A stretch of DNA of 64,000 nucleotides from Promethearchaeota archaeon (GTDB taxonomy: Archaea > Asgardarchaeota > Lokiarchaeia > Sigyniarchaeales > SOKP01): the NCBI GenBank assembly GCA_048941015.1, contig JBHLNZ010000010.1:1-64000 (forward strand). Reading direction: 5' to 3'. Position 1 is the stretch's first letter; every line of letters starts with the position of its first letter. The notes beneath the pieces were generated by a model. The model saw only the letters and a program-made list of their open reading frames with translations. It was not told the DNA's origin and made no database searches. Shown one piece after another: positions 41,704 to 58,482 of the stretch. A program made the translations under genes and the position numbers.

Positions 41704-43194
41704 ATGGTTATTGTTACCACGAATAGGGGAAAAATTAAGGGAGTTCAAGCAAAAAATCATCAATTTTTCTTAGGGATTCCTTATGCGAAACCTCCTGTAG
41801 GTGATTTACGATTTCGAGAACCACAACCTATGGATTCATGGAACGAAATTAAGCATACATCAAAATTTGGACCAATATCATATCAAAATCAAGTCGATAG
41901 CCCACCTATTAATCAAGAGCAAAGCGAGGATTGTCTTTATCTCAATATATGGACACCTAAAGCTGACAATGAAAATAGACCAGTAATGTTTTGGATACAT
42001 GGTGGTGGTTTCCTCATAGGAAGTAGTTCAAGGCCAAGACTAAACGGTGCAAGATTAGCAGCTTATGGTGATGTCATTGTCGTAAATTTTAATTACCGTT
42101 TAGGAGTTTTAGGTTTTCTTAATTTACCGAGTACTCCCCCCAATATAGGAATCCTTGATCAAATTGCAGCATTAAGATGGGTTAAGGAAAATATCGAAAA
42201 ATTTGGAGGTAATCCCACTAATATTACTATTTTTGGTGAATCTGCTGGTGCTATGTCCGTAGCAATTTTACTTGCTATTCCTTCTGCTAAAGGATTGTTT
42301 CATAAAGCAATTATGGAAAGTGGGGCTGCAAATCCGAGAGATTTCGAAGCAGAACGAGCGAAGGAGGGAGCAGAAGAATTTATGTCAAAATTAAAACTTG
42401 AAAATGGAAATATTAACGTTCTAAGAGAAATTCCAGTTAGTAGAATAATAAGAGTACAGAAAAAAATATGCGGAACCATGTTGGATCCTAGAATTAATCC
42501 ATTTAGACCTTTTATTGATGGAAATGTAATTCCAGAGCAACCCCTCGAAATTTTCCGAAAAGGAAAAGCGAATTCTGTTCCATTAATTATTGGATATAAT
42601 AATGAAGAATTAGGAGCTATATCAGACGTTCTAAATCAGGCAAATAAATTAAAAAGAAAAGTAATTTTAAGATATATTAGAGCACATATTAAGAAGAGAA
42701 ACATTTCTAAAGAAAATCTTAATAGACTAATTGAAGTATATAAGAAACAAATGGAATTAAGATATCCAAATAACCCTTTCAAATATTGGAGTGCCATACT
42801 TTCCGATTCTATGTTTAGGATTCCCATTATTCGTCAAATCGAGGCACAATGTAAACATCAAAAAGATATTTACTCCTATATTTTTCACTACGAATCGCCA
42901 AAATATGGGTATGCACTTCATACTTTTGAACTGCCTTTCGTATTTAATACTTTAGATACGGTAGATATGATGGAGGGAGCAATAGAGTTGAATGAAGAAA
43001 CAGAGAAATTATCTAATTTGATAATGGATACTTGGGTAAATTTCGCTCGAAATGGTGATCCAAACCATCAAAGCTTACCGGAATGGCCGCCATATGATAT
43101 AAAGAGGCGAGCTACAATGATGTTAGGTTTAAATCCCGTGGTCGAAAATGCACCTCTAGATGCCTTGCGAGAGATTTGGGATGGAATTATATAA
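41704..43194 (+). CDS. Type-B carboxylesterase
   Basis: GIPYAKPP, SEDCLYLNIW, HGGG, FGESAG. Confidence 0.95.
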   Translation: MVIVTTNRGKIKGVQAKNHQFFLGIPYAKPPVGDLRFREPQPMDSWNEIKHTSKFGPISYQNQVDSPPINQEQSEDCLYLNIWTPKADNENRPVMFWIHGGGFLIGSSSRPRLNGARLAAYGDVIVVNFNYRLGVLGFLNLPSTPPNIGILDQIAALRWVKENIEKFGGNPTNITIFGESAGAMSVAILLAIPSAKGLFHKAIMESGAANPRDFEAERAKEGAEEFMSKLKLENGNINVLREIPVSRIIRVQKKICGTMLDPRINPFRPFIDGNVIPEQPLEIFRKGKANSVPLIIGYNNEELGAISDVLNQANKLKRKVILRYIRAHIKKRNISKENLNRLIEVYKKQMELRYPNNPFKYWSAILSDSMFRIPIIRQIEAQCKHQKDIYSYIFHYESPKYGYALHTFELPFVFNTLDTVDMMEGAIELNEETEKLSNLIMDTWVNFARNGDPNHQSLPEWPPYDIKRRATMMLGLNPVVENAPLDALREIWDGII

Positions 43195-44481: not shown

Positions 44482-45852
44482 TTGAATCTTATGGAAAGTA
44501 AAATTGAAGCAAAATTAAGTCGACGCAATTTATGGGGTTATGCTATTGGAGCTATTCCTAATGGGCTTCTAACACTCATTTTCACTCTTAAATATATTGA
44601 ATATTTCTATGAAAAGCTTCAATTAAACCCAATATTATTCATAATTGGCCAAATTATTTATCTGGTGATTAATGCCCTTAATGATCCATTATTAGGGCAA
44701 TTATCTGATCGGACTAATCCTATGAAATGGGGGAGTAGAAGAAAGATATATATTAAATATGGAGCTCCAATATGGGCATTAGCTTTCATGCTAGTTTGGA
44801 TACCATGGAGTTTTAATAACCAAATTATTATCTTTCTACATTTTATCATTAGTATTTGCCTATTTGATACTATGCTAACATTAGTTGTTCTTGTATGGTT
44901 AGCTTTATTGCCTGAAATGACATCAGATTTGGATGAGCGAAATAAAGGCAATTTTCTTGCCCTTATTCTCGGTGCGATAGTAATTTTACCCACATTCCTA
45001 ATTGTTGGAGGAATGGATCCTACTTCTTTAGAATTTCGTGTTTTTATGTTAATTATTGCTATATTTTCTACAATTCTCTTATTATTAACTGCTTATCTTT
45101 GTCAAGAAAGCCCTGAATTCCGCAAGGATGAAGGTCTTCCACTAGGGAAAGCAGTAAAGGAAACATTAAAACTAAGATCTTTTCAGCTTTATATGGGATA
45201 CATTGTCTGTGATGCTTTCATTGGATCAATCGGATTGAGTTACTTATTTGTATACCTACTGATTTTAGGTGAGGGAGGTTTACTTTATTACTTTATTATC
45301 TTATTTTTCCTAGGCTACGGTTCAAACTTTTTATGTATGAAATTAAGACCAAAATGGGGGATGCATAAGATAATATTAAGGTTTGGAGCAATTAAGATAA
45401 TTGGTACATTCATTTTTTTCATATTATTGCTTTTTATCGATGTTCAGTGGTTTGTCATAACAGGTTTTGCTATTTTAACCTTTTTTGGAGGTTATACGAT
45501 ATTTAATACGCCTCTCCTATATTTATCGATAGATGAAGATGAATTAAACAATAAGTCTCGCAGAGAAGGCATGTTTTTTGGTATAGATGCGTTGATCCAT
45601 AAACCTACTCAGAGTATAGGTCCGATAGTTGCCACGATCATTTTAGAAGCGTTTAACTATGTCAAAGATTCTGATATTCAACCTGATTCAGCTTATTTAG
45701 GAATAAAAATACTCATGTTATTAGTTCCTGTTATAGTAAGTGCTATTGGGCTTATTTTTATCTACTTTTATCCAATTCATGGAGAAAAGCTAGATAAAAT
45801 GCGAGAACAATTAAAAATTCTACATGAAGAAAAACAAAAAAGAATAGAATAA
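44482..45852 (+). CDS. GPH-family (MelB-like) MFS sugar transporter
   Basis: NALNDPLLGQLSDRT, RREGMFFG, FYPI. Confidence 0.9.
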   Translation: MNLMESKIEAKLSRRNLWGYAIGAIPNGLLTLIFTLKYIEYFYEKLQLNPILFIIGQIIYLVINALNDPLLGQLSDRTNPMKWGSRRKIYIKYGAPIWALAFMLVWIPWSFNNQIIIFLHFIISICLFDTMLTLVVLVWLALLPEMTSDLDERNKGNFLALILGAIVILPTFLIVGGMDPTSLEFRVFMLIIAIFSTILLLLTAYLCQESPEFRKDEGLPLGKAVKETLKLRSFQLYMGYIVCDAFIGSIGLSYLFVYLLILGEGGLLYYFIILFFLGYGSNFLCMKLRPKWGMHKIILRFGAIKIIGTFIFFILLLFIDVQWFVITGFAILTFFGGYTIFNTPLLYLSIDEDELNNKSRREGMFFGIDALIHKPTQSIGPIVATIILEAFNYVKDSDIQPDSAYLGIKILMLLVPVIVSAIGLIFIYFYPIHGEKLDKMREQLKILHEEKQKRIE

Positions 45853-45905
45853 TTTTTTTTAAAATTTTATTTTATAATGAATACAAGTAAAATTAGGGAT
45901 AAATC

Positions 45906-48605
45906 ATGATAAATCCTCCTTATGATTTGAAATGTGAATATCTTGTTAATCCGATTGGAATCGATATTAAAAATCCAAGATTTTCATGGATTCTTGGCCA
46001 TCAAGAAAGGAATCAATATCAATCTGCCTATCAGGTTATAGTTTCATCAGAAAGTTCATTATTATTATCTGAAGTAGGGGATATGTGGGATAGTGGGAGA
46101 ATAGTTTCGGAACAGAATTTTAATATTCCATATAAAGGAAAACCATTAAAAAGTGATTCAAATTATTACTGGAAGGTAAAATGGTGGGATAAAAATAATA
46201 TCGAGAGTGATTACAGTAAGCCAAGTACGTTCGGTACAGTATTATTAAATAATTCTGAATGGAAAGCAAAATGGATTAGTAAAACGGAATTTATTGATGT
46301 AAAAACAAGAAAATTATATCAGTATAAATCAGGAAAAAGAAATTTGGCAGGTAGAATAAGAGAATATCATGCATTATATCTAAGGAAAGAATTCATTCTC
46401 AAAAAACCAGTTAAGTCAGCAAAAATATATATCTGCGGATTAGGTTATTACGAACTTAGACTCAATGGAAATAAGGTTGGAGATCGAATTCTAGACCCAG
46501 CACAAACTGATTACAATAAAGTTGCGCTCTATTCTACTTATGATATAACTACTAATTTGAAAAGCAAAAATGCTATAGGAATTATATTAGGAAATGGGCG
46601 CTGTGTTGAATTATGGGGTTATGACTTTCCAAAAGTAATTGCGCAAGTTCATATTCATTACGAAGATGGAAGCACTCAAATGATATACACAGATGAAAGT
46701 TGGAAACTATCCAATGGACCAATACAAGAAAATGGCATTTACTTTGGTGAAAAATACGATGCTCGATTAGAAATACCAGTATGGGATAAGCCAGATTATA
46801 AAGACTCTGAATGGGATTTTGCGGCAGAGGTTTCAGGATATACTTTATCTTCCCAGATGATGCAACCTATTAAAATTTCAAAACTACTTAAGCCTCAAAA
46901 ACTATATAGTCCCAAACCAGGAATATACGTTTATGATTTTGAGCAGAACTTTTCTGGTTATGTTCGTTTAAAAGTGCGTGGACCGCGAGGATGTGAAGTT
47001 ACATTAAAATTTGCTGAAATAGTCCATGATGATGGAACCATCAATACAGCAACTAATGGAAATGCTCCATCAACAGACATCTATATTTTAAAAGGGGAAA
47101 GAGAGGAAATTTTTGAGCCGCATTTCACTTATCATGGATTTCGATATGTCGAATTAACTGGATTTCCGGGAGTACCATCTTTAGATAATTTAGAAGGAAT
47201 TTTTATTCACAGCAATGTTTCTAAAGTAGGAGATTTCTTTTGTTCAAATCATTTAATTAATAAAATCCACACTAATATCCTTTGGGGTCAATTAAGTAAT
47301 TTAATGAGCATACCTACAGATTGTCCTCAGAGAGATGAGAGAATGGGATGGATGGGTGATGCACAACTTGCTATTGAGGAAGCTATTTTTAATTTTGATA
47401 TGGTACGTTTTTACAGTAAATATCTAAATGATATTAAAATATGTCAAAAACAAGATGGTTCAATATCTGACGTAGTTCCACCTTATTGGAAACTTTATCC
47501 TGCAGATCCTGCCTGGGGATCTGCTTATATTACAATCGCATGGTATCTATATTGGTATTATAACGATCTTCGTATACTCGAAGAGAATTATGAAGGAATG
47601 AAAAATTATATTGAATTTCTTATTTCAAAATCAGAAAATAACTTATTTCTAATGGGAAAATTTGGTGATTGGTGTCCCCCATGTTCCATAGTTTCAAGGA
47701 CAACTCCAATAGAACTGACTTCTTCTTGGTATTTTTATCATGACACTTTCTATTTGTCAAAAATTGCAGAAATTCTTGGAAAAAAAGAAGATAACGAACT
47801 TTATAAAAGTAAAGCCGAAGAGATTAAAAATGCATTCAATGAAAAATTCTTAAAGGTTTCTTATGAAACAACAAAATTATCTCCCGTAGATCGATCCGTG
47901 GGTCAAACATCGAATATTTTACCCCTCTATTTAAACATGGTTCCTAATAAAAAGAAAAAGAAAGTATTATCTATTTTAGTTAATGCTATTAGAGAAGATT
48001 TTGATTATCATTTCGATACAGGGATTTTAGGAACAAGGTATATATTTGATACTTTGTCTGAAAATGGTTTTCCAGAAGCTGTTTACAAAATGATTAAACA
48101 AAAAAGCTTTCCGGGATATGGATATATGATACTAGAAGGTGCAACTACTCTTTGGGAACGATGGGAAAAACTTGAAGGAGGAGGAATGAATTCCCATAAT
48201 CACATAATGCTCGGTTCTGTAGATGCATGGTTTTATAAAACTCTTGCAGGTATTACTTCAATACAACCTGGATGGAAAAAAGTAAGAATAAAACCGTATA
48301 TACCTGATGATATGGATTATGCTAGTGGATCAACAACTACAATTTTAGGGATAATTTATAGCAGTTGGGAAAAGTTAAATAATAAAATAAAAATGACTAT
48401 AAAAATACCCGTTGGATGCTCAGCTGACGTTTGGATACCAATTGAGGGAAAGAATATTATCATTAAAGAAAATGATGATATAATTTGGAAACCTGATAGA
48501 GAAAGCGAATCTAAAAACCAAGTAAAGTTCTTAAATCTTGAAGAGAAACATATTGTATTTAATATCGGTTCTGGATATTATGAATTCCTAATAGAAAAGT
48601 TTTAA
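45906..48605 (+). CDS. Alpha-L-rhamnosidase (GH78)
   Basis: PTDCPQRDERMGWMGD, FTYHGFRY, GATTLWERW, SHNH. Confidence 0.95.
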   Translation: MINPPYDLKCEYLVNPIGIDIKNPRFSWILGHQERNQYQSAYQVIVSSESSLLLSEVGDMWDSGRIVSEQNFNIPYKGKPLKSDSNYYWKVKWWDKNNIESDYSKPSTFGTVLLNNSEWKAKWISKTEFIDVKTRKLYQYKSGKRNLAGRIREYHALYLRKEFILKKPVKSAKIYICGLGYYELRLNGNKVGDRILDPAQTDYNKVALYSTYDITTNLKSKNAIGIILGNGRCVELWGYDFPKVIAQVHIHYEDGSTQMIYTDESWKLSNGPIQENGIYFGEKYDARLEIPVWDKPDYKDSEWDFAAEVSGYTLSSQMMQPIKISKLLKPQKLYSPKPGIYVYDFEQNFSGYVRLKVRGPRGCEVTLKFAEIVHDDGTINTATNGNAPSTDIYILKGEREEIFEPHFTYHGFRYVELTGFPGVPSLDNLEGIFIHSNVSKVGDFFCSNHLINKIHTNILWGQLSNLMSIPTDCPQRDERMGWMGDAQLAIEEAIFNFDMVRFYSKYLNDIKICQKQDGSISDVVPPYWKLYPADPAWGSAYITIAWYLYWYYNDLRILEENYEGMKNYIEFLISKSENNLFLMGKFGDWCPPCSIVSRTTPIELTSSWYFYHDTFYLSKIAEILGKKEDNELYKSKAEEIKNAFNEKFLKVSYETTKLSPVDRSVGQTSNILPLYLNMVPNKKKKKVLSILVNAIREDFDYHFDTGILGTRYIFDTLSENGFPEAVYKMIKQKSFPGYGYMILEGATTLWERWEKLEGGGMNSHNHIMLGSVDAWFYKTLAGITSIQPGWKKVRIKPYIPDDMDYASGSTTTILGIIYSSWEKLNNKIKMTIKIPVGCSADVWIPIEGKNIIIKENDDIIWKPDRESESKNQVKFLNLEEKHIVFNIGSGYYEFLIEKF

Positions 48606-48639
48606 ATAAGTTAAATTTAGAATTTTATTCTTTACTTTT

Positions 48640-50028
48640 TTATTCACTATTAGGTATTGGAGTTATTTTAAAAGAATATGCACTCGAATCAAAAAGATCT
48701 TTGGGTATTTCAAGAATTAGATTATTATCAACTTGAGACCATTTGATTGGATTATTATAACCCAATAATTGAATTTCTGAATTGGGATTAATTTTTAATG
48801 ATTTAATTACAACTTTTTTTCCTTTTGATTTATTTAATAATATTACGAAAAGAGAATTCTTAGTTTTAGTAAATTTCACATCAATATTATCAAAAGTTTT
48901 TTTTTCAGCTTTAATCCAAGGTCTTGTACCATAGATTGCTTCTCCATTAATCTCCAGCCATTTACCTAATCCTAAAATTGCTTTTTTCTGAAGCTCTGGA
49001 ATTGAACCATCCGCCTTAGGACCAATATTAAGCAACAGATTACCATTTTTGCTTACGATGTCGATAAACATCTTGATAAGTTCGTCAATTTTCAAATAAT
49101 GTTCCTCTGTCTCAAATTTATTAAAGCCATAGGAGTTTCCTATTCCTCGATTTGCTTCCCACTTTTTAGTCATTATTTTATCAAAAATTTCATATTCAGG
49201 AGTAAGAAAATCCCAGAAATGAACTTTAGGAAAATTTTCACCTTTTTTTTTGTATTGAATCCATCTGTCATTAATAATTCCTTCAGGAATTTTATTATAG
49301 TAATAAGCGAAAATCTCATATGCATTTGTAGGTACATATCCTATATCATTCCACAAAATTTTAGGCTCATATTTATCAATGAGCTCATACCAATGATTAT
49401 TAGCATATTCAATATATTCGGAAGTTCGGACGCCATTTTCAATAAAACTAGTATTATCTCTAATAGGTTCTGGGTTAAAAGACCAATCTAATAATCCTGA
49501 ATAATACACACCAAATTTCATTCCAAGAATTCTAACTTCTTTAGAAAGTTCTCCTATAATATCCCTACTAGCGTGATAGTTTTTCTTTTTTGGATTTTTA
49601 AAATTGCTAGGCCATAAAAGAAAACCATCATGATGTTTGGTAACGAGAACAACATATTTAGCGCCAGCTTTTTTAAATAATTGTGCCCACTCTTTTGGAT
49701 TCCAATTTTTAATCTCTTTATTAAAAATTGGTACAAAATCGTCATAAGTGAACTCTTTACCATAGTTCTCATAATGATATGTTTCTGTAGGACTACCTGG
49801 GATTCTAAGGGAATTTAAATACCACTCTGCATAAGGATTATTCTTAAAATGTTCTTCGGGACCTCTACTTTCAGATTCAATTAAATTTAAACCAGTCACA
49901 GCAAATGCTGGAACAGAATATAGACCCCAATGAATGAAGATTCCAAACTTGGCATCATGAAACCAATTTGGAACTTCATGTTTTTTTATCAATTTCCTTG
50001 TTGGCTCAAATCTCATTACCTTCACCAA
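48640..50028 (-). CDS. Alpha-L-fucosidase (GH29)
   Basis: KFGIFIHWG, YAEWY, TKHHDGF, LWND, GNLLLNIGP. Confidence 0.95.
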   Translation of the reverse strand: MVKVMRFEPTRKLIKKHEVPNWFHDAKFGIFIHWGLYSVPAFAVTGLNLIESESRGPEEHFKNNPYAEWYLNSLRIPGSPTETYHYENYGKEFTYDDFVPIFNKEIKNWNPKEWAQLFKKAGAKYVVLVTKHHDGFLLWPSNFKNPKKKNYHASRDIIGELSKEVRILGMKFGVYYSGLLDWSFNPEPIRDNTSFIENGVRTSEYIEYANNHWYELIDKYEPKILWNDIGYVPTNAYEIFAYYYNKIPEGIINDRWIQYKKKGENFPKVHFWDFLTPEYEIFDKIMTKKWEANRGIGNSYGFNKFETEEHYLKIDELIKMFIDIVSKNGNLLLNIGPKADGSIPELQKKAILGLGKWLEINGEAIYGTRPWIKAEKKTFDNIDVKFTKTKNSLFVILLNKSKGKKVVIKSLKINPNSEIQLLGYNNPIKWSQVDNNLILEIPKDLFDSSAYSFKITPIPNSE

Positions 50029-50636
50029 TCAGAAAAAGACTTTTCTTTTGAAAAATCTCTCTTCAAGGGTTTGCCCGTCATTAAGGTAAGATATCTAATG
50101 TAAGCAGATTGTTCAGCGCCTGTTACGTATTGTAACGCATCCTCTAGAGTCATTCCTTTAGCGAAGATTCCATGTCCTCTCACTACCACAAAAGGGTAAT
50201 TCTTAAGCATTTTAGGTACTTCTTTTGATGTGTAAAATGCCCCTGCTGGTATTTCAACGTCAATAATTGGAATTTTTTTATATAATGCAAAACCTTCAGC
50301 ATCTATACAAGTAATTTCATCCTCAATCAACGAAAGTGCGACACAAAATGGATTATGAGCGTGAATTACTGCCATGGCATCTGTTTCTAAATAAATAGCC
50401 CTGTGAACGCCAAGTTCAGTACTGGCAATAAGAGAACTCGAATCTTCTTCCTTTAATTCGCAAATTACTAAATCTTCTGGCTCTAATTCTCCAAGCATCG
50501 CTGCTCTCCTTTTAATAATTATCTTCCCTCCACTTCGAATGGAGATATTTCCTGAATGAGAAGTATTGTAACCATGTCTAACTAAATGCTTTCCAATTTT
50601 TCTAAACATTTTATATATTGATTCTTCAATAACCAT
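50022..50636 (-). CDS. Class II aldolase (fuculose/rhamnulose-1-phosphate aldolase-like)
   Basis: SGNIS.R, STE..VH, HAH, RGHG. Confidence 0.88.
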   Translation of the reverse strand: MVIEESIYKMFRKIGKHLVRHGYNTSHSGNISIRSGGKIIIKRRAAMLGELEPEDLVICELKEEDSSSLIASTELGVHRAIYLETDAMAVIHAHNPFCVALSLIEDEITCIDAEGFALYKKIPIIDVEIPAGAFYTSKEVPKMLKNYPFVVVRGHGIFAKGMTLEDALQYVTGAEQSAYIRYLTLMTGKPLKRDFSKEKSFSDW

Positions 50637-50653
50637 TTTCTTTAACCTTTTTT

Positions 50654-52450
50654 TTAAATATTAAATTCAATATCAAGCTTTTCTAATAACTCTGGTTTAG
50701 GAATTCCTTTCTCGTCCCATTGCCTTACAAAATAATATTGATCTAACATTGGTTCTAATGAAACGACATATCCTTTTGAAAATCCCTCCTTTAGAGGCTC
50801 GCTAATAAATCTTAGTGGTAAATTATCATCCTCTCTTTTAAACCCTTCTCGAATGTTAAAAATCCTCTCAAGATTATATATTCGTTCTCCAATTTCAAGA
50901 AGTTTTATTACATCATATTCAATTCCAGTTATTGCTTTTAAAAACCGAGCATAATAATCAAGTCCTAAAGCCCAACCCGCGAATGCACATATTACCAAAC
51001 TATCTTCAATTGCTTTCTGATTTTGTTTTAAAACTAGTAAATCAGGTTTTCCTGCGGTAGTAAATCTGTCTATTTTTTTTGGAGTAGCAAAGATTTCTAG
51101 TGAAGCCATATATCCAGTAAGATGACAGCCTCCTCGATTTGAGGTCGCATATCCTAATGCATGTCCAAAAACTCCTCTTGGATCATATGCTGGAAGTTCT
51201 AATCCTTTTACATGCATCGCAACTTCATTATGATTATATCGATTAGCAAGCGATCTTGCCCCCTGACTAATTTCAGCCCCAGTTCCTTCCATTTCAGCAA
51301 TTTTTATTATTAATTTCTTTAATATATTATTATTTCCAAATTTGAGGGAATTATCATTTAAAAACCCTTTTTCTTGTAATTCCATTGCACATGAAATACT
51401 AACACCACAAGAAATCGTATCGATTCCAAATTTATTACATAAATAATTTGCTTGAGTTATAGAGATTAAATCATATATTCCTAGATTTGGACCGAGAGCC
51501 CAAACAGATTCATATTCAGGGCCTTTACCGTTCATTTCACCCGCTTTCGTTAACCTTCCACACCTAATCGGACAAGCATAACATCCTTCTTGCTCTTGAG
51601 TTAACCGTTTATTTATTTCTTCTCCACTTACTTGAGCCGCTCTCTCATCATAACCTTTTTGAAAGTTATTAATAGGAAACATACCCAAAGTATTAATTAC
51701 ATTAACTAAAGCTGAAGTACCAAATTTCGGTAGGGAAGAACGTGTAATAGGGACAACTTTAATTTTATCCTGAGCAACTTTTACATATTTTTTTAAAAGT
51801 TCTTGGTTATGCACTTCAAACTTAATACTCCCTCCCTTTATAACAATAGCTTTAAGGTTCTTAGAACCCATAACTGCTCCAACTCCGCCTCTACCAAATG
51901 CTCTATATGCATCATTCATTATTGAAGCAATTTTTACTAAATTTTCACCAGCTGGACCAATCATTAGAGCATGAATATTCTTACCTTCAATTTCCTCCAA
52001 TTGATGAAGTGTATCCTCTGTATTAAGACCCCATAATTTCGAGGCTTCCCGTATTATGGGTTCTTTTCCACCCTCAATTAAGATATATGCTGGCTCTTTT
52101 AAAGCGCCCTCTAATAAAATTCCATCATAACCACATTTTTTCATAAAAACTCCAAAAGATCCACCAGAATTTGAATAAAAAATACCATTTGTAAGTGGAG
52201 ATTTAGTTACTAAAGAAAATCGACCATTAGTTGGAACAATAGTTCCGCCAAATGGTCCTGTTGAAAAAATCAACAAGTTTTTTGGATCTAATGGATCTGA
52301 GTTTACTGGAAGTCTTGTTGATAATAGTTTTACTCCTAAACCTCTTCCTCCGATAAAATCTTCTAATATTTTTTCATGTATAGGAAATTCACTGAATTTC
52401 TCATTATTTAAATTTATTTCGAGAATTTTATTATTTAGCCCTTTCATCAT
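50654..52450 (-). CDS. aor: Aldehyde:ferredoxin oxidoreductase (tungsto-/molybdopterin AOR family)
   Basis: IGGRG, KSPLT, IGPAGE, GAVMGSKNLKA, CYACPIRC, GPEYE, YDPR, RGGCH. Confidence 0.93.
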   Translation of the reverse strand: MMKGLNNKILEINLNNEKFSEFPIHEKILEDFIGGRGLGVKLLSTRLPVNSDPLDPKNLLIFSTGPFGGTIVPTNGRFSLVTKSPLTNGIFYSNSGGSFGVFMKKCGYDGILLEGALKEPAYILIEGGKEPIIREASKLWGLNTEDTLHQLEEIEGKNIHALMIGPAGENLVKIASIMNDAYRAFGRGGVGAVMGSKNLKAIVIKGGSIKFEVHNQELLKKYVKVAQDKIKVVPITRSSLPKFGTSALVNVINTLGMFPINNFQKGYDERAAQVSGEEINKRLTQEQEGCYACPIRCGRLTKAGEMNGKGPEYESVWALGPNLGIYDLISITQANYLCNKFGIDTISCGVSISCAMELQEKGFLNDNSLKFGNNNILKKLIIKIAEMEGTGAEISQGARSLANRYNHNEVAMHVKGLELPAYDPRGVFGHALGYATSNRGGCHLTGYMASLEIFATPKKIDRFTTAGKPDLLVLKQNQKAIEDSLVICAFAGWALGLDYYARFLKAITGIEYDVIKLLEIGERIYNLERIFNIREGFKREDDNLPLRFISEPLKEGFSKGYVVSLEPMLDQYYFVRQWDEKGIPKPELLEKLDIEFNI

Positions 52451-53733
52451 TAAGTCCTTTTTTGTAGAATTTCTTTCTCATATTCTTCTACGTTTTTGAT
52501 CCAATCTTTTCCAACTGGTACATCATTTTTATGACAATAAAAGTCCCAAATTGCCCCAAATGGCAGAGTCTTAAGTTCTTCTAGTAGTGCTAATCTCTGG
52601 AAGTATTTACCACCAACTTCGTAGTCCCTTAGAAGTTCCCAAGGTTGCAGCAATGCGTATAATATACTTTTTAATGTAGACCTTGCACCAATAACCCATG
52701 CTGCAATTCGATTGATAGAAGCATCGAAGTAGTCTAATCCTATAAAAATTTTATCTAATGCTTGACTTCGAATTACTTCTTCAGCAATTTGAATTATATC
52801 ATCATTTTGAATAACTACATGATCAGAATCCCAATGTAGCCCTCTACTAACATGAAGTAAAATTCCTTTGATGAAAGGTAAAATTGCGGAGATTTTATCT
52901 CCAACAGACTCAGTAGGATGAAAATGTCCTGAGTCAAGAGTTAACATTAGATTATTTTTTACTGCATAACTTAAGTAGAAATCATGACTTCCTACTACAT
53001 AAGCTTCACTTCCAATACCAAATAACTTTCCTTCTAATGAATCTTGTATATAATTTGGATTTACTTTTTGTTCAAAAATAGTATCCAGAGAATCCTTTAA
53101 TAATTTCCTATGTCCAGCACGATCTACGGGAATGTCTTTTGAACCATCAGGAATCCAAATATTGTGAATCACAATATCGTTCAAATTTTTTCCTATTTCA
53201 ACACTAATCTCACGACATTTTTTTATGTGTTCTATCCAGAAGTTACGGATTTCAGTAGATTTGCTACTTAAAGTAAATCCTGAATTCGCTTTTGGATGAG
53301 AAAACAAAGTAGAATTAAAGTCTAATCCTAAATCTTCCCCTTTTGCCCAATCTATCCATTTTTGAAAATGTTCTATCTTAATTTCATCTCTATCTATGAG
53401 TCTGCCTCCAAAATCCCCATAAATAGCGTGTAAGCTAACCCGATGTTTACCTGGTACTAAAGAAATTGCTTTTTTAAGATCCACCTGAAGCTCTTTAATA
53501 GTTCTTGGCTTCCCAGGGTAGCTTCCCGTAGGTATTATACCTGCTCCTGCTAGACAGGAATCTAAACTCTCAAACCCTCTGACATCATCTCCTTGCCAAC
53601 AGTGAATAGACAGAGGGATGCTATTTAAAATCTCTAATACCTTATCTGTGTTAACTCCAAGCTCGATATAAATCTCTTTTGCCGACTTATAAGCATTTAT
53701 TACTTTTTCTTTAGTTGCATTAATTATAATCAC
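52450..53733 (-). CDS. rhaA: L-rhamnose isomerase
   Basis: HCWQGDDV.GFE, LHAIY, WIPDG.KD, KLFGIG.E.Y.VGSH, DSGHFHPTE, WDSDHV, DYFDASINR. Confidence 0.96.
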   Translation of the reverse strand: MIIINATKEKVINAYKSAKEIYIELGVNTDKVLEILNSIPLSIHCWQGDDVRGFESLDSCLAGAGIIPTGSYPGKPRTIKELQVDLKKAISLVPGKHRVSLHAIYGDFGGRLIDRDEIKIEHFQKWIDWAKGEDLGLDFNSTLFSHPKANSGFTLSSKSTEIRNFWIEHIKKCREISVEIGKNLNDIVIHNIWIPDGSKDIPVDRAGHRKLLKDSLDTIFEQKVNPNYIQDSLEGKLFGIGSEAYVVGSHDFYLSYAVKNNLMLTLDSGHFHPTESVGDKISAILPFIKGILLHVSRGLHWDSDHVVIQNDDIIQIAEEVIRSQALDKIFIGLDYFDASINRIAAWVIGARSTLKSILYALLQPWELLRDYEVGGKYFQRLALLEELKTLPFGAIWDFYCHKNDVPVGKDWIKNVEEYEKEILQKRT

Positions 53734-53829
53734 TTTTTATTTTAGTATCATATATCTAATGTAAAACAATAATTATAATAATAAATTAGAGTGATTTCTA
53801 AAAATTGAAAATTCTTAGAAAAATAATAA

Positions 53830-54270
53830 TCAAAATATTTCAATAAAACCTTCATCACCGTTTACTCTAACCATTGTTCCATTCTCGATTTCTTTTAAAT
53901 TAGAGAGATTTATTTGATCAACGATGGGAAATTTTTGACCATAGAAAATTTCTGCAATAATAGCACCCGAACTCATTAAAGGTTCACCAATTTCGCATAC
54001 TATAGCTTTAGGTCCCACATTTCGAACTATCGTCTCTAATAGCACAAATCCTAAAGTAGTAGTTCCTATAGGGTATGGAAAAATTAATATTTTTCCTGTA
54101 ACATCTTTTTTATACAATTCATGAGTTCTGTCAGCAACTTTTAATCTCCTACTTTTTTGTACTAAAGGTATAGTGAACGCAGCACTAATACTAAAAGGTT
54201 GCTTAGTTATTAACGCTTCACCTTCAACAATTCCTTTACTAAGGCTTCTTCCTTTTATAATTTTAGTCAT
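53830..54270 (-). CDS. Aconitase X small (swiveling) subunit, DUF126
   Basis: G.VEGEALIT, GKILIFP..GTT, PKAIV, VRVNGDEG. Confidence 0.85.
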   Translation of the reverse strand: MTKIIKGRSLSKGIVEGEALITKQPFSISAAFTIPLVQKSRRLKVADRTHELYKKDVTGKILIFPYPIGTTTLGFVLLETIVRNVGPKAIVCEIGEPLMSSGAIIAEIFYGQKFPIVDQINLSNLKEIENGTMVRVNGDEGFIEIF

Positions 54271-55471
54271 TTTTCATACCCTCCGTTGCTATCTTTATGC
54301 AATCATCAATATTTCTATAGGTAGCATTACTATAAAAGCAAGTTTTAGCAGAATTAGTTGTTAATGGACGTGGTAAAGTAGTAAGAAGTGGACATAATGA
54401 AGTTAATTTTGCTCCAGATTTCTTTAAAATTTCATTATATTGAGAATTGATAATTTTTCTCTTACTCACTTCATTTGTACAAATCCATAAATTCATCTCC
54501 TTCATAATCTTTTTTCCTTTTAGCTTATTTAATAAATCTATTACTTCTTCTTCACTTAATTGGGGACATCCAGTTGTAATACTAACTGGTGGTTGTGTCC
54601 AATTAGTGCTATATTTTTCTCTTACTTCTTTGAGATCGTTATTATCAATTTCAATAATTTCTCCTGGTTTGTCACCCTGAAACGCACTTTTAAGATCTCT
54701 AGCTTCAGGAGTCATGCCAATTACATGAATCAGAGCAACAGCGCCAGTTGCAGCGGATGCTGCTCCTAAATTTTTTAAATTATCAGTAGTAATGTTTTTA
54801 AAACCATCTATGACTGGAATTTTATTACCTGCGATTTCTCCTATTCGTAATCCAATTGAAGTTAAATTGAAATTATCAGAATAGTCAATATCAGGAGAAA
54901 TTTTAAACAATAATTCACCTTTCCTATTCTCATCTATATGTAATCCATTATAAGGAGTCTTACCAGTGATAGCACATGCTAAATCTAAAAGACCACCTTC
55001 ACGATTAGATCTTGCTCCCAAAATAGAGTTTAAATAAATAACTGCTGAGGACTCAGACCATGCACAGTGATCACCTAATTTTGGTTTATTATCCAGAAAA
55101 TAAGGAGTACAAGTAAATCCATGGACACCTATTTTTGTTAGATCTTCCATTAACTGATCATGTAATTGAAATAATGGTATAATTGTTTTAAGTTCTTCAG
55201 CATAATCAAAATCAAGAATCGGATCTGCTGTGGTTCTTACTTTGACTTTCAGTCCTGCTTCTGCTATTTGGTGTAATACTTCAGCAGCAGCATTAACAAA
55301 ATTTAAACCAAAATTCAAAACTGTGTGAGCGGAAACAATTTCAATTAATTTCTCTGCCCCATAAGAATCTCCTAATCTAACAACTAATTTCAATAATTTT
55401 GAGAGTGTTTCACCTTTTTCGCCGTTTAAAATCGATTCTTCTTCTTTTGTTAAGAAAATTTCTTTCACCAA
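54263..55471 (-). CDS. Aconitase X large (catalytic) subunit, DUF521
   Basis: AH, TCTPY, AWSESSA...NS.LGARSNREG, GCPQ, CP, TNSAK..Y. Confidence 0.92.
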   Translation of the reverse strand: MVKEIFLTKEEESILNGEKGETLSKLLKLVVRLGDSYGAEKLIEIVSAHTVLNFGLNFVNAAAEVLHQIAEAGLKVKVRTTADPILDFDYAEELKTIIPLFQLHDQLMEDLTKIGVHGFTCTPYFLDNKPKLGDHCAWSESSAVIYLNSILGARSNREGGLLDLACAITGKTPYNGLHIDENRKGELLFKISPDIDYSDNFNLTSIGLRIGEIAGNKIPVIDGFKNITTDNLKNLGAASAATGAVALIHVIGMTPEARDLKSAFQGDKPGEIIEIDNNDLKEVREKYSTNWTQPPVSITTGCPQLSEEEVIDLLNKLKGKKIMKEMNLWICTNEVSKRKIINSQYNEILKKSGAKLTSLCPLLTTLPRPLTTNSAKTCFYSNATYRNIDDCIKIATEGMKND

Positions 55472-55642
55472 ATTAGAATAATAGTAATATAATATTATTT
55501 GATAAGCTTATAATTAAAATGATCCAAAAAGCATTGAATAATAACCTCTAATATAATAAAGGATATTTCAATTAATTCATATAATCTCCTTCATTCAAAA
55601 GTTTAAATTAAAATTAATTCTTAACTTGATATTTGAAAAGAA

Positions 55643-56698
55643 ATGGAAATTAAATACAATATTGGCTCATATAAATTTGAAGTAAATCAATTCTTTCCGG
55701 AAGATTTGTTTTACAAAATTACGGATATTAGAATTTCTAATATTCAAGATATTTTACAACGTGAATATAATAATCGAATCAGAAGAAAATTACCCTGGAA
55801 TGCAAATCTAGTTATAATCGCCGCTGATCATCCTGCTAGAAGAGTCACTAAAGTAGGGTCTAATGAATTAGCAATGGGTAATAGACAAGAATACTTAGGC
55901 AGAATAATTCGTGTTCTCATGCTTGATCAGGTCGATGGCATTATGGCAACGCCAGATATAATGGATGATTTGATAATCTGCAATTATATATTCAAAAAAA
56001 GTGGTGGCAGAAGTTTCATTGACAATAAGATTCTAATAGGTAGTACTAATAGAGGTGGGCTTTTTGGTTCTCCTTATGAAATGTATGATCCCGTTACAGC
56101 TTATAATATTGATGATATAAAACATAATGAATTAGATGGTGCTAAGATGATGATTAGGATTGATTTAAATTCAAAATTTGCTAAATATAGTCAAAAAACT
56201 TTAAAAATCTGTTCAAATCTAGTAAGAAAATGTAATGAATATGGAATTCCTTCTTTCATTGAAGCTTTACCTGTAGAATACACAGATAAAGGAATCTATA
56301 AAATAAGTAAGAGTAGTATCGAACTAATTAAAACAGTGGGCATTGTAACCGCTTTAGGAGGCAGTTCAGCAAATATTTGGCTTAAGGTTCCTTATGTTAA
56401 TAATTTTGAAGCAGTAGCTAAAAGTACAACCTTTCCTATATTAATTCTAGGAGGAGAAAGCCACGAAAATCCTTTTCAGTTCTTAAAAAATATAAAAACT
56501 GCTCTTTCATCAGGAGAAAATATTAAAGGATGTTTAGCTGGTAGAAATATTCTATATCCTGGTGATGATGACCCAAGAGCAGTATCATTAGGGGTTTCTA
56601 ATATTATCCATCATTCCTATAGTGTAGAAGAAGCTATTGCAACCATTGCTCAAAATCGTGGAAAAGAGATGGAATTTTTGACATCTAAAATGATATAA
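55643..56698 (+). CDS. Class I aldolase-like TIM barrel (Cgl0159-like)
   Basis: IAADHPAR, DGIMATPD, NRGGL, GAKMM, WLKVP, LILGG, AGRNILYP. Confidence 0.8.
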   Translation: MEIKYNIGSYKFEVNQFFPEDLFYKITDIRISNIQDILQREYNNRIRRKLPWNANLVIIAADHPARRVTKVGSNELAMGNRQEYLGRIIRVLMLDQVDGIMATPDIMDDLIICNYIFKKSGGRSFIDNKILIGSTNRGGLFGSPYEMYDPVTAYNIDDIKHNELDGAKMMIRIDLNSKFAKYSQKTLKICSNLVRKCNEYGIPSFIEALPVEYTDKGIYKISKSSIELIKTVGIVTALGGSSANIWLKVPYVNNFEAVAKSTTFPILILGGESHENPFQFLKNIKTALSSGENIKGCLAGRNILYPGDDDPRAVSLGVSNIIHHSYSVEEAIATIAQNRGKEMEFLTSKMI

Positions 56699-56821: not shown

Positions 56822-57517
56822 ATGAGAAAAGAAGATTTATTAAAGCCTTCTGAATCTAATTTTATTAAGAATTCTGATATCTCTATTAAGGATTCGAATG
56901 AAATCCCTACAGGAACGTTTAAATCAGGTACTACAACTGTTGGATTGGTCTGCAAGGATGCTGTTATTTTAGGAACAGATAAAAGAGCTACAATGGCTTA
57001 CTTTATAGCTAGCAAAACAGCTGAAAAATTACATAAAATTCAAGATCATCTTTATATGACTATAGCAGGGTCTGTAGCAGATGCTCAATATCTTATTGAT
57101 GTTTTACGTGCTGAAACTATGCTTTATCAATTAAAAGAAGAGAAAAAGATTAAAGTGAAAAGTGCCGGAAAACTATTAGCTAACATATTATATCAGAATA
57201 AAATGTTTCCTTACGAAGTTGGACTAATTTTAGGCGGAGTTACAGAAGAAGAAGGGCCCTTATTATTAGACATTGCGGCTTATGGCTCAATTTTACCTGA
57301 GAAATTTTGCGCTGTTGGTAGTGGACAAAACTTTTCTTATGGCGTATTAGAGGCAAAATATAAAGATGGTTTAAGTATTGAAGAGGGTAAAGATATTATA
57401 AAAAAGGCTATTTCATCTTCAATAATCCGCGATATGGCCAGTGGCAATGGTATAGATATAGCTGTAGTTAAACAAGATGGTCCCGCAGAAAGGGAATTTA
57501 TTCCTATAAAAGAATAA
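56822..57517 (+). CDS. psmB: Proteasome subunit beta
   Basis: Propeptide then G|TTTVG, DKRAT, AGSVAD, GSG, RDMASG. Confidence 0.96.
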   Translation: MRKEDLLKPSESNFIKNSDISIKDSNEIPTGTFKSGTTTVGLVCKDAVILGTDKRATMAYFIASKTAEKLHKIQDHLYMTIAGSVADAQYLIDVLRAETMLYQLKEEKKIKVKSAGKLLANILYQNKMFPYEVGLILGGVTEEEGPLLLDIAAYGSILPEKFCAVGSGQNFSYGVLEAKYKDGLSIEEGKDIIKKAISSSIIRDMASGNGIDIAVVKQDGPAEREFIPIKE

Positions 57518-57750: not shown

Positions 57751-58482
57751 ATGAGCTATAGTATTATAGTAGATCTCTCTCACAAAGAAAAGATAGAAGA
57801 ATTCCCCGATTTCGCATTAGATGAAGAAGATTATGAAGTCGATTATATAGATAAGAATGAAGGTCCTATCGATTTTGAAATGCTTGAAGACTATGATATC
57901 TTATTTATTGGAAATATTCAAGCTACTCAAAATGGAAAAGATGATAAGTTTACTAAGGAAGAATTATTAGCAATCAAAAAGTTTATCGGAGAAGGTGGAG
58001 GCTTATTCTTAACCAGTGGAGATGGCGGGGACAGAGATGTACCAATGAAACTTGGTTCTATTAGAGTATTATATAAAATAACTGGTGTACGGAAATTTTG
58101 GAATGGAATTATTCAAGAATCAACTTCAAATTTTCTTGTTAATCGAGATAATGTTTTAATTAATGAATTTTATGCTCATCCTATTACCGATGGAATTACA
58201 GCATTAGTCCTCCCTAACTGCACTTTTTTTACAATCACAGAAGAGGATATTGAAGATATCATTGTGACCTCTGAAAAAGCAGAATTTAAATACTATTTTG
58301 ATAATGATACTGGTGCAATTGGTCCTGTACCTATATGTGTAGTTTCTGAATTTTTTAATGGACGATGTGTTACAGTTGGATCATCAGATTGGTTAATTGA
58401 AGATAGCGATTATGGTTTGGATGCTGAAGATAATTTGAAATTTCTGACAAATATTTTGGAATGGTTGTCTTTCGAAACCTAA
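57751..58482 (+). CDS. GATase1-like / GIFT-type (IFT52 N-terminal, DUF4350-like) domain protein
   Basis: DLSHKE, FT.EE...IKKFI.EGGGL, HPIT.GI, GR.V..G, DNLKFL.N...WL. Confidence 0.6.
   Translation: MSYSIIVDLSHKEKIEEFPDFALDEEDYEVDYIDKNEGPIDFEMLEDYDILFIGNIQATQNGKDDKFTKEELLAIKKFIGEGGGLFLTSGDGGDRDVPMKLGSIRVLYKITGVRKFWNGIIQESTSNFLVNRDNVLINEFYAHPITDGITALVLPNCTFFTITEEDIEDIIVTSEKAEFKYYFDNDTGAIGPVPICVVSEFFNGRCVTVGSSDWLIEDSDYGLDAEDNLKFLTNILEWLSFET

Follow-up and report, generated by a model that had tools for sequence, protein, structure and literature searches.

Gene content and organization of the locus

The window analyzed here is a 64,000-nucleotide (nt) stretch of DNA from an uncultured Promethearchaeota archaeon (G000:C126:1-64000), the source being a metagenome-assembled genome (MAG), G000, with 144 contigs and a completeness of 95%; the genomes of its relatives are labelled Promethearchaeota, Lokiarchaeota and Helarchaeota. 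The segment 44482–56698 encodes an L-rhamnose isomerase (RhaA), a tungsten-type aldehyde:ferredoxin oxidoreductase (AOR), a class II aldolase, two glycosidases, a transporter, the two subunits of an aconitase X (AcnX) and a Cgl0159-like TIM barrel, and all nine of these genes (9/9) lie where a preliminary description of this DNA had placed them, as judged by profile matches. That description interpreted the genes as a kinase-less pathway with two branches for 6-deoxyhexoses. We propose a different reading, to which we assign a probability of about 0.7: the region 44.5–53.7 kb is a rhamnoside (and fucoside) locus encoding an ordinary phosphorylative L-rhamnose pathway in which the AOR oxidizes lactaldehyde, and the AcnX and Cgl0159-like genes lie outside the route.

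The core of the locus is a minus-strand operon. Its first gene, rhaA (52450..53733), scores 633 bits against NF002203 (cut-off 572) and 604 bits against PF06134. It is followed by the AOR gene (50654..52450; AFOR_N 245 bits, AFOR_C 447 bits), a gene for a small FucA-like class II aldolase of 204 residues (50022..50636; PF00596, 111 bits) and, as the final gene, a GH29 alpha-L-fucosidase (48640..50028; PF01120, 311 bits). The AOR and rhaA genes overlap by 1 nt and the GH29 and aldolase genes by 7 nt, and 17 nt separate aldolase and AOR. Upstream of rhaA, an AT-rich spacer of 96 nt (53734..53829), the only long gap of the minus-strand run, precedes the genes for the AcnX small (swivel) subunit (AcnX-S, 53830..54270, minus strand; PF01989, 58 bits) and large subunit (AcnX-L, 54263..55471, minus strand; PF04412, 370 bits), which overlap each other by 8 nt and belong to a paralogous type that we call AcnX2. 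The tight coupling from rhaA to GH29, set against the 96-nt gap between rhaA and AcnX-S, argues that the operon excludes AcnX, and the spacer would leave room for a separate archaeal promoter of rhaA. We compared five intergenic spacers (upstream of rhaA; beta-lactamase-like/GPH; GPH/GH78; GGR-like/carboxylesterase; AcnX-L/Cgl0159) and found no operator common to them, only AT-rich, promoter-like words, none of which involved rhaA.

On the plus strand, a GPH/MFS_2 cation symporter (44482..45852; PF13347 169 bits, TIGR00792 103 bits) and a GH78 alpha-L-rhamnosidase with all five Bac_rhamnosid domains (45906..48605) converge on the operon, and a carboxylesterase of the COesterase/BD-FAE type (41704..43194; PF00135, 436 bits) lies outside them on the same strand. 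The Cgl0159-like gene (55643..56698, plus strand; PF22649, 212 bits) diverges from the AcnX genes at the other end. The AcnX–rhaA junction is not a misassembly, since a separate MAG, G261, shows it as well, as does an ENA contig that is 95% identical; ENA contigs carrying the junction at this identity probably derive from the same species.

A conserved rhaA–AOR–aldolase unit

We found rhaA in 40 of 400 Asgard genomes (G000 counted), including 12 of the 41 congeners. Stretches of 20 kb around rhaA were taken from 20 Asgard genomes, and their open reading frames were labelled by BLAST against the window proteins. The aldolase, AOR and RhaA genes form a triad in 11 of these 20 loci, distributed over genera g1, g7, g11 and g12, with identities to the window proteins of 66–96% for the aldolase and 57–90% for the AOR. 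In the congeners, the aldolase is 91–96% identical and always lies beside AOR and rhaA, and GH78 and the GPH transporter usually adjoin the triad. The grouping of rhaA, class II aldolase and AOR that had been noted in the window is thus conserved in at least four Asgard genera, which supports the view that the three genes form one catabolic unit ending at lactaldehyde.

Outside Asgard archaea, the closest RhaA proteins are those of anaerobic bacteria, with identities of 53–61%. We further examined 80 public-genome rhaA loci, about 75 of them bacterial and 5 Asgard. RhaB is present in 39 of the 80, AOR lies directly beside rhaA in two bacterial loci (Pirellulales and Spirochaetaceae), and a homologue of AcnX or Cgl0159 was found in none (0/80). 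The predicted synteny of the AcnX domains (DUF521 and DUF126) with rhaA is therefore not borne out, either in the Asgard relatives other than G261 or in the public genomes. Archaea of the Loki type are usually described as fermenters of peptides and amino acids; the conserved unit indicates that they also possess a bacterial-type module for the degradation of rhamnosides, glycosides of a sugar that occurs in plants and algae.

The rhamnulokinase gene lies at a contig break

The window contig contains no FGGY kinase and no match to rhamnulokinase (RhaB), so that the earlier claim of a locus without this enzyme holds for the contig. It fails for the relatives, where 9 of the 11 triad loci contain a rhamnulokinase gene within the 20 kb retrieved (TIGR02627, 483–485 bits; next model, 144 bits). 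The two triad genomes that lack a kinase in the locus, G212 and G261, carry one elsewhere. No full-length FGGY protein of G000 shares more than about 22% identity with these RhaB proteins.

The claim also fails for the genome itself, because the C-terminus of a rhamnulokinase opens contig C144. Positions 2–175 of this contig (C144:2-175) encode the 57 C-terminal residues of an FGGY kinase, in frame from EATAVGN to the stop codon and corresponding to positions 421–454 of the TIGR02627 model; in a tblastn search, the RhaB proteins of the relatives match C144:2-172 with 45–63% identity over their last 45–57 residues. C144 is collinear with contig C70 of G261, where rhaB (479 bits) reaches the contig end. 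Logan contigs from sediment metagenomes show zero differences over the start of C144 and extend 506, 1144 and 1793 nt past its edge, and in a contig from a related strain the residues ...LNIPVIAGPS stand in frame directly before EATAVGN at that edge. The in-frame fragment, the synteny with G261 and the public contigs beyond the edge together indicate that rhaB is, as far as sequence can tell, cut by the assembly and not absent from G000. The genome-wide check for FGGY kinases thus removes the basis of a kinase-less pathway, and it illustrates how contig breaks in a fragmented MAG can create a "missing enzyme" argument from a single window.

In both G000 and G261, rhaB lies away from the rha operon, among genes of arginine/proline type. 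In G261, the first 60 codons of rhaB stand at the end of contig C122; a tblastx search with this contig end returned nothing from the G000 assembly, which lacks that part of the gene. No RNA source is listed for the C144 stretch. In both MAGs, which were assembled independently, the break falls within rhaB, at position 1 of C144 and at the C70 and C122 ends of G261. Several strain variants are seen over the first 1 kb of C144 among the Logan contigs, and strain heterogeneity may have caused the break.

G000 also encodes six full-length FGGY kinases (on C54, C141, C42, C3, C135 and C130), which were considered as RhaB and as fuculokinase. The best of them scores 106 bits against TIGR02627, none comes near the rhamnulokinase or the fuculokinase models, and we accept none of them as RhaB.

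Candidate enzymes for the formation and oxidation of lactaldehyde

The aldolase is not of the RhaD type: it scores 26 bits against the RhaD model NF002963 (cut-off 170) and 192 bits against NF006413 (cut-off 203). Its best solved relative is the fuculose-1-phosphate aldolase of T. thermophilus (2FK5), and it retains the HxH and GHG zinc motifs and a GN phosphate motif. Its conserved linkage to rhaA and AOR suggests that it would act as a rhamnulose-1-phosphate aldolase, possibly also on fuculose-1-phosphate.

The AOR aligns with P. furiosus AOR (1AOR) over residues 8–594 with 535 bits and shares the two-domain AFOR architecture of P. furiosus AOR and E. limosum WOR1. Unlike these tungsten enzymes, it is translationally coupled to rhaA and to a sugar-phosphate aldolase gene, which argues for a specific pathway role rather than general detoxification of aldehydes. 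It is at most 40% identical to the 10 other AOR paralogues of the genome, whereas its orthologues in relatives (57–90% identity) are rha-linked. Family membership and conserved linkage both point to oxidation of L-lactaldehyde to L-lactate, and the operon AOR probably disposes of lactaldehyde as a toxic by-product. The bacterial AOR-family enzyme WOR1 of E. limosum, the one precedent that we found, has lactaldehyde among its most active substrates (PMC11725836), and Williams et al. 2022 (PMC9324843) guessed at a lactaldehyde role for AOR on the basis of genes that are not linked in bacterial MAGs. No paper that we found on lactaldehyde and AOR, or on Lokiarchaeota and rhamnose isomerase, describes such an operon. 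One of the many archaeal AOR paralogues would thereby gain a specific role, as a lactaldehyde:ferredoxin oxidoreductase, and the step would store reducing power as ferredoxin instead of NADH.

The window contig encodes neither an iron-dependent alcohol dehydrogenase (Fe-ADH) nor an aldehyde dehydrogenase (Aldedh), and the AOR takes that place in the operon. The reported absence of an NAD-linked lactaldehyde enzyme is accurate at this scale; it does not extend to the genome, in which six Fe-ADH and two Aldedh genes are found on other contigs.

Probable glycoside import and the proposed route

The GPH orthologues of relatives (64–74% identity) lie beside GH78 in their rha loci, and the symporter is likely to import rhamnosides. 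GH78 is present as a single copy in the genome and adjoins rhaA in relatives. Inspection of the N-termini revealed no signal peptide in GH78, GH29 or the carboxylesterase, which suggests that GH78 is probably cytoplasmic, and that glycosides are probably imported by the GPH symporter and cut inside the cell. Homologues of the carboxylesterase (54–55% identity) occur inside the rha loci of two relatives (L029 and L031), and the enzyme is probably an accessory carbohydrate esterase of the rha locus. GH29, also a single copy, is found within a rha locus only in G000 and G261. Plausibly, GH78, GH29 and the GPH transporter feed the rhamnose unit.

In the route that we propose, the GPH-type symporter would import rhamnose-containing glycosides, from which cytoplasmic GH78 would free L-rhamnose while GH29 and the nearby esterase strip fucosyl and ester decorations. 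RhaA would convert L-rhamnose to L-rhamnulose, and the rhamnulokinase represented on C144 would yield rhamnulose-1-phosphate. The FucA-like class II aldolase is predicted to cleave the latter to dihydroxyacetone phosphate (DHAP) and L-lactaldehyde. Finally, the operon AOR would oxidize L-lactaldehyde to L-lactate with formation of reduced ferredoxin, replacing the NAD-linked AldA/RhaW or FucO/RhaZ.

The finding that the window encodes no fucose isomerase stands: the FucI N-domain is missing from the window contig, and no canonical FucI is found genome-wide. A 392-residue protein on C87 with a FucI_C domain alone was considered and is insufficient for such a call, although it may be an aldose isomerase. 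Its gene is overlapped by a GH31 gene by 19 nt (C87 8492-11619; L163:3493-6620), and genes for a transaldolase/FSA, an Amidohydro_2 protein and an MFS transporter lie nearby.

AcnX2 is a second, Asgard-specific AcnX pair

G000 encodes two AcnX large subunits, one in the window and one on contig C12, which are 35% identical. The C12 copy belongs to a modified mevalonate operon of the archaeal kind, complete and encoded on a single strand (C12 25975-35969; L019:5976-15970). The operon encodes HMG-CoA synthase, an MVD-like protein, HMG-CoA reductase, a UbiD-type decarboxylase, AcnX-L, AcnX-S, mevalonate kinase and a 633-residue IPK/IDI2 fusion, in which isopentenyl-phosphate kinase is joined to an FMN-dependent IDI2-like domain. 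Homologues of the window copy form about 107 clusters at 55–95% identity, all of them Asgard where named, and the next matches reach at most 41%. At an identity of at least 65%, this AcnX2 clade is found in 20 of the 400 Asgard genomes, so that it is an extra copy in about 5% of them, and the mevalonate-type copy in 327; both types coexist in 18 of the 20 AcnX2 genomes.

The closest solved relative of AcnX2 is the type IIb enzyme TkAcnX (7CNR, 234 bits; also 7CNS), for which residue roles were taken from PMC8184944. Both have split large and small subunits encoded by overlapping genes, and alignment to 7CNR shows that AcnX2 retains the three cluster Cys, the Glu-Ser-Ser motif, and the Lys and Tyr residues that contact the carboxylate and beta-hydroxyl groups. 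These likenesses would be expected if AcnX2 were a second phosphomevalonate dehydratase isozyme for isoprenoid lipids. However, the site that binds the 5-phosphate in TkAcnX-L, made up of the Gly48-Val49-Ser50 loop, Asn53 and Asn79 (PMC8184944), is altered throughout the clade: in nearly all of about 100 members, VLNF stands in place of the AGVS loop (Ala47-Ser50), and Asp in place of Asn79. In the small subunit, a GTTT loop replaces the GST loop with the presumed catalytic Ser of TkAcnX and the C12 copy in 24 of 24 members. Furthermore, none of the 25 loci examined was seen to have a mevalonate-pathway gene near AcnX2, AcnX2 never occurs in a mevalonate operon, and its rarity differs from the near-general presence of the canonical copy. 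We therefore consider the isozyme explanation highly improbable.

Besides these changes, the clade conserves the motifs TCTPY, GCPQ/H, LCP, ESS and NSAKxCFY. The conservation of the pocket changes across the clade argues that AcnX2 was selected for another substrate, and we infer that it would be a functional Fe-S dehydratase whose substrate is a beta-hydroxy acid distinct from mevalonate-5-phosphate. As a well-delimited, conserved subfamily with a rebuilt substrate pocket, it offers a clean target for enzyme discovery.

Across the 25 loci, the large/small subunit pair is constant and its neighbours vary, and they include pterin and radical-SAM genes, carbamoyl-phosphate synthase and acyl-CoA genes. 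An MFS_2/GPH transporter gene adjoins or lies near AcnX2 in five loci (L069, L070, L071, L017 and L061), and an esterase gene adjoins it in two (L165 and L011). AcnX2 adjoins rhaA only in G000 and its sister G261 (2 of the 20 AcnX2 genomes); the link is absent from the 23 other AcnX2 loci, where the neighbours are unrelated, and from the 19 other Asgard rhaA loci. In genomes where rhaA, AcnX2 and Cgl0159-like genes co-occur, they are on separate contigs, the named cases apart.

These data bear directly on the kinase-less two-branch pathway, in which RhaA and the class II aldolase would form one branch, and AcnX2, with L-fuconate or another deoxy-sugar acid as its substrate, and the Cgl0159-like protein, acting on the 2-keto-3-deoxy acid, would form the other, both yielding lactaldehyde for the AOR. 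Non-phosphorylative routes for L-rhamnose and L-fucose are known in which a sugar dehydrogenase, a lactonase, an aldonate dehydratase and an aldolase lead to pyruvate and L-lactaldehyde, and in the window dehydratase and aldolase-like genes do lie side by side. An aldonate would fit the aconitase-type elimination of an alpha-H and a beta-OH, and AcnX2 keeps the catalytic core without the phosphate-binding residues. AcnX2 and rhaA are same-strand neighbours in two species, and GH29 is present while FucI and FucK are not found. In addition, an AcnX of a different type II subfamily, 40% identical, lies amid sugar genes, as described below. Against this stand the rhaB gene, present in G000 and beside the triad in relatives, and the AcnX2–rhaA link, missing in the 23 other AcnX2, 19 Asgard rhaA and 80 public-genome rhaA loci. 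No sugar 1-dehydrogenase or lactonase is found among the annotated genes at 37–62 kb, a genome-wide search not having been made, and neither AcnX2 nor the Cgl0159-like gene shows a conserved association with deoxy-sugar genes. To our knowledge, the dehydratases of the known non-phosphorylative routes are of the enolase superfamily or IlvD/EDD and the aldolases of the DHDPS or HpcH type, not AcnX or DhnA/Cgl0159-like. The properties of the Cgl0159-like protein, discussed in the next section, argue in the same direction, and we regard the two-branch pathway as very unlikely.

A metagenome contig (L164:215-11898, with P0109) carries the different AcnX type II subfamily, which has 40% identity and the motif TTLDP. 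Its neighbours encode a Zn-dependent alcohol dehydrogenase (Zn-ADH), a sugar ABC transporter, an Amidohydro_2 (lactonase-like) protein and the glycoside hydrolases GH31 and GH35, a context that would suit a sugar-acid dehydratase.

The Cgl0159-like barrel and the history of the locus

The Cgl0159-like protein, a TIM barrel of a kind related to class I aldolases of the DhnA type, matches Cgl0159 of Corynebacterium glutamicum (3FOK, PF22649) over nearly its full length (E 5e-44) and has a weak match to MJ0400. We found no function reported for Cgl0159/cg0198 (3FOK) in the literature. A Lys in a WxK context is common to the window protein (WLKVPY) and 3FOK (WMKLPV); it resembles what we take to be the IVKTSY motif of MJ0400, and the HMMER alignment begins just after it. 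The LGGE and AGRN motifs are presumably equivalent to the phosphate-binding ones of MJ0400-type aldolases, and thus point to a phosphorylated substrate, not to the free keto-deoxy acid of the two-branch pathway.

Homologues occur in 41 of the 400 Asgard genomes, where the gene nearly always heads a block of a proteasome subunit, an IFT52-like gene and a radical-SAM gene. In the window, a 243-residue protein with a faint match to the IFT52 GIFT domain lies between the proteasome and radical-SAM genes (57751-58482 and 56822-57517), and this three-gene block is kept across several Asgard genera. The block with the Cgl0159-like gene is present without AcnX2 in G242, G239, G149 and G162, and also in genomes without rhaA. 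The assignment of this gene to a deoxy-sugar branch as a class I aldolase, and with it the AcnX dehydratase/aldolase branch as a whole, thus finds no support in the relatives. The divergent pairing of the Cgl0159-like gene with AcnX2 is confined to one subclade (G000, G261, G233, G253 and G251, and two metagenome contigs). In G261, a 487-residue sulfatase-family gene (L027:12507-13970) lies between AcnX-L2 and the Cgl0159-like gene and breaks the pairing.

In the congeners, a GGR-like (geranylgeranyl reductase) gene pair flanks the rha locus on one side, as in G000, and the other flank differs. The simplest history, and the most likely one, is a recent rearrangement, in the ancestor common to G000 and G261, by which the rha operon came to adjoin the AcnX2/Cgl0159-like/proteasome block; the same event would have shifted GH78 and GPH to the opposite side, brought in GH29 and detached rhaB. 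The best reading is that AcnX2 and the Cgl0159-like protein are neighbours of the rhamnose unit, not parts of it.

Alternative roles for AcnX2 and points that weigh against the rhamnose reading

AcnX2, sometimes together with the Cgl0159-like protein, could instead form an accessory module for an imported or ester-derived, non-phosphorylated hydroxy acid, operating alongside AOR-type chemistry, in which case the position beside rhaA and AOR would be partly selected. The strict conservation of the clade-specific motifs indicates that AcnX2 is under selection. The divergent pairing recurs in five genomes and two metagenome contigs, and the Cgl0159-like gene is present in 11 of the 20 AcnX2 genomes against 30 of the 380 others, although these genomes are related and not independent, and their kinship inflates the co-occurrence counts. 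Transporters of the MFS_2/GPH type at five AcnX2 loci and esterases at two, together with the sister AcnX subfamily in a sugar cluster, are weak leads towards imported or ester-derived acids as substrates. In G260 (L056:4877-9095), an AOR paralogue begins 42 nt after AcnX-S2 and is followed after 4 nt by an OMP-decarboxylase/HUMPS gene; this AOR is 34% identical to the rha-linked AOR and has no clear orthologue in G000. On the other hand, no neighbour is common to the whole AcnX2 clade, each of the genes occurs alone in many genomes, and the data point to no particular substrate. In a set of 25 loci from genomes with 11 AOR paralogues each, it would not be unusual for a single such adjacency to arise by chance. 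We consider the accessory module improbable. A bolder version is unlikely: here AcnX2 would be a new Asgard-specific Fe-S dehydratase, derived from phosphomevalonate dehydratase, that acts on a non-phosphorylated sugar- or ester-derived hydroxy acid, possibly a deoxy-aldonate, and is linked to ferredoxin and AOR, giving a second 6-deoxyhexose route with fucose as the orphan substrate, a role that its place beside rhaA, AOR, aldolase and GH29 in two species would reflect.

Several observations weigh against the phosphorylative rhamnose pathway as the full account of the locus. (i) The aldolase scores below every curated equivalog cut-off, and one pair of residues at its phosphate site, T/S-G in FucA, is R-A in the window protein. 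(ii) Only 57 codons of rhaB are assembled, and the intact gene is inferred, not seen. (iii) Canonical FucI, FucK (a fuculokinase-like FGGY protein) and a mutarotase, RhaM included, were not found in the genome, which leaves the operon GH29 with no explained downstream route. (iv) rhaA is present in 8 of the 20 AcnX2 genomes and in 32 of the 380 others, an excess over what chance alone would give, in a comparison in which related genomes are not independent. (v) Two independent arrangements bring AcnX2 close to an AOR-family gene: that of G000/G261 and that of G260, where the two are directly adjacent.

Comparison with characterized systems

The rhamnose unit is closest to the bacterial phosphorylative pathway, represented by RhaA-RhaB-RhaD with AldA/FucO in E. 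coli. The two have in common an equivalog-level RhaA, a kinase of the TIGR02627 type (present in the relatives and, as a fragment, in G000), a class II aldolase, a step devoted to lactaldehyde, and GH78 and a sugar transporter in the locus. They differ in the host, here an Asgard archaeon, in the FucA-like aldolase of 204 residues that stands in for RhaD/RhaE, in rhaB being unlinked from the operon, and in a ferredoxin-linked AOR, by its proposed role, instead of an NAD(H)-linked enzyme. The RhaEW and RhaZ variants of the pathway were described by Rodionova et al. 2013 (PMC3870299), whose lactaldehyde enzymes are NAD(H)-linked only, with no mention of ferredoxin, tungsten or archaea. What appears to be new is thus the ferredoxin-linked lactaldehyde step, given the role proposed for the AOR, and the archaeal host; the rest is the known rhamnose pathway.

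Compared with TkAcnX, the differences of AcnX2 in the phosphate loop, at Asn79 and in the GTTT loop go together with its place outside the mevalonate operon. Compared with Cgl0159, the Asgard domain is mostly fused: in about 25 of the 41 genomes, it forms the C-terminal half of a 680–740-residue protein with a xylose-isomerase-like TIM barrel (AP_endonuc_2), as in L074:4404-6476 (G162), L076:4312-6504 (G149) and L078:5649-7703 (G138). The partner barrel has no homologue in G000. The fusion looks like an undescribed sugar-phosphate isomerase/aldolase enzyme. Beside it lies an Fe-ADH gene in G239 and G138 and a PFK gene in G002.

Finally, a cluster on C3 (7589-13638; L023) comprises an FGGY kinase, an SCP2 protein and two fusion proteins, one of 560 residues that joins a D-2-hydroxyacid dehydrogenase to a class II aldolase and one of 702 residues that joins a DHDPS-type aldolase to an APH-fructosamine-kinase domain; it possibly encodes a sugar-acid route.

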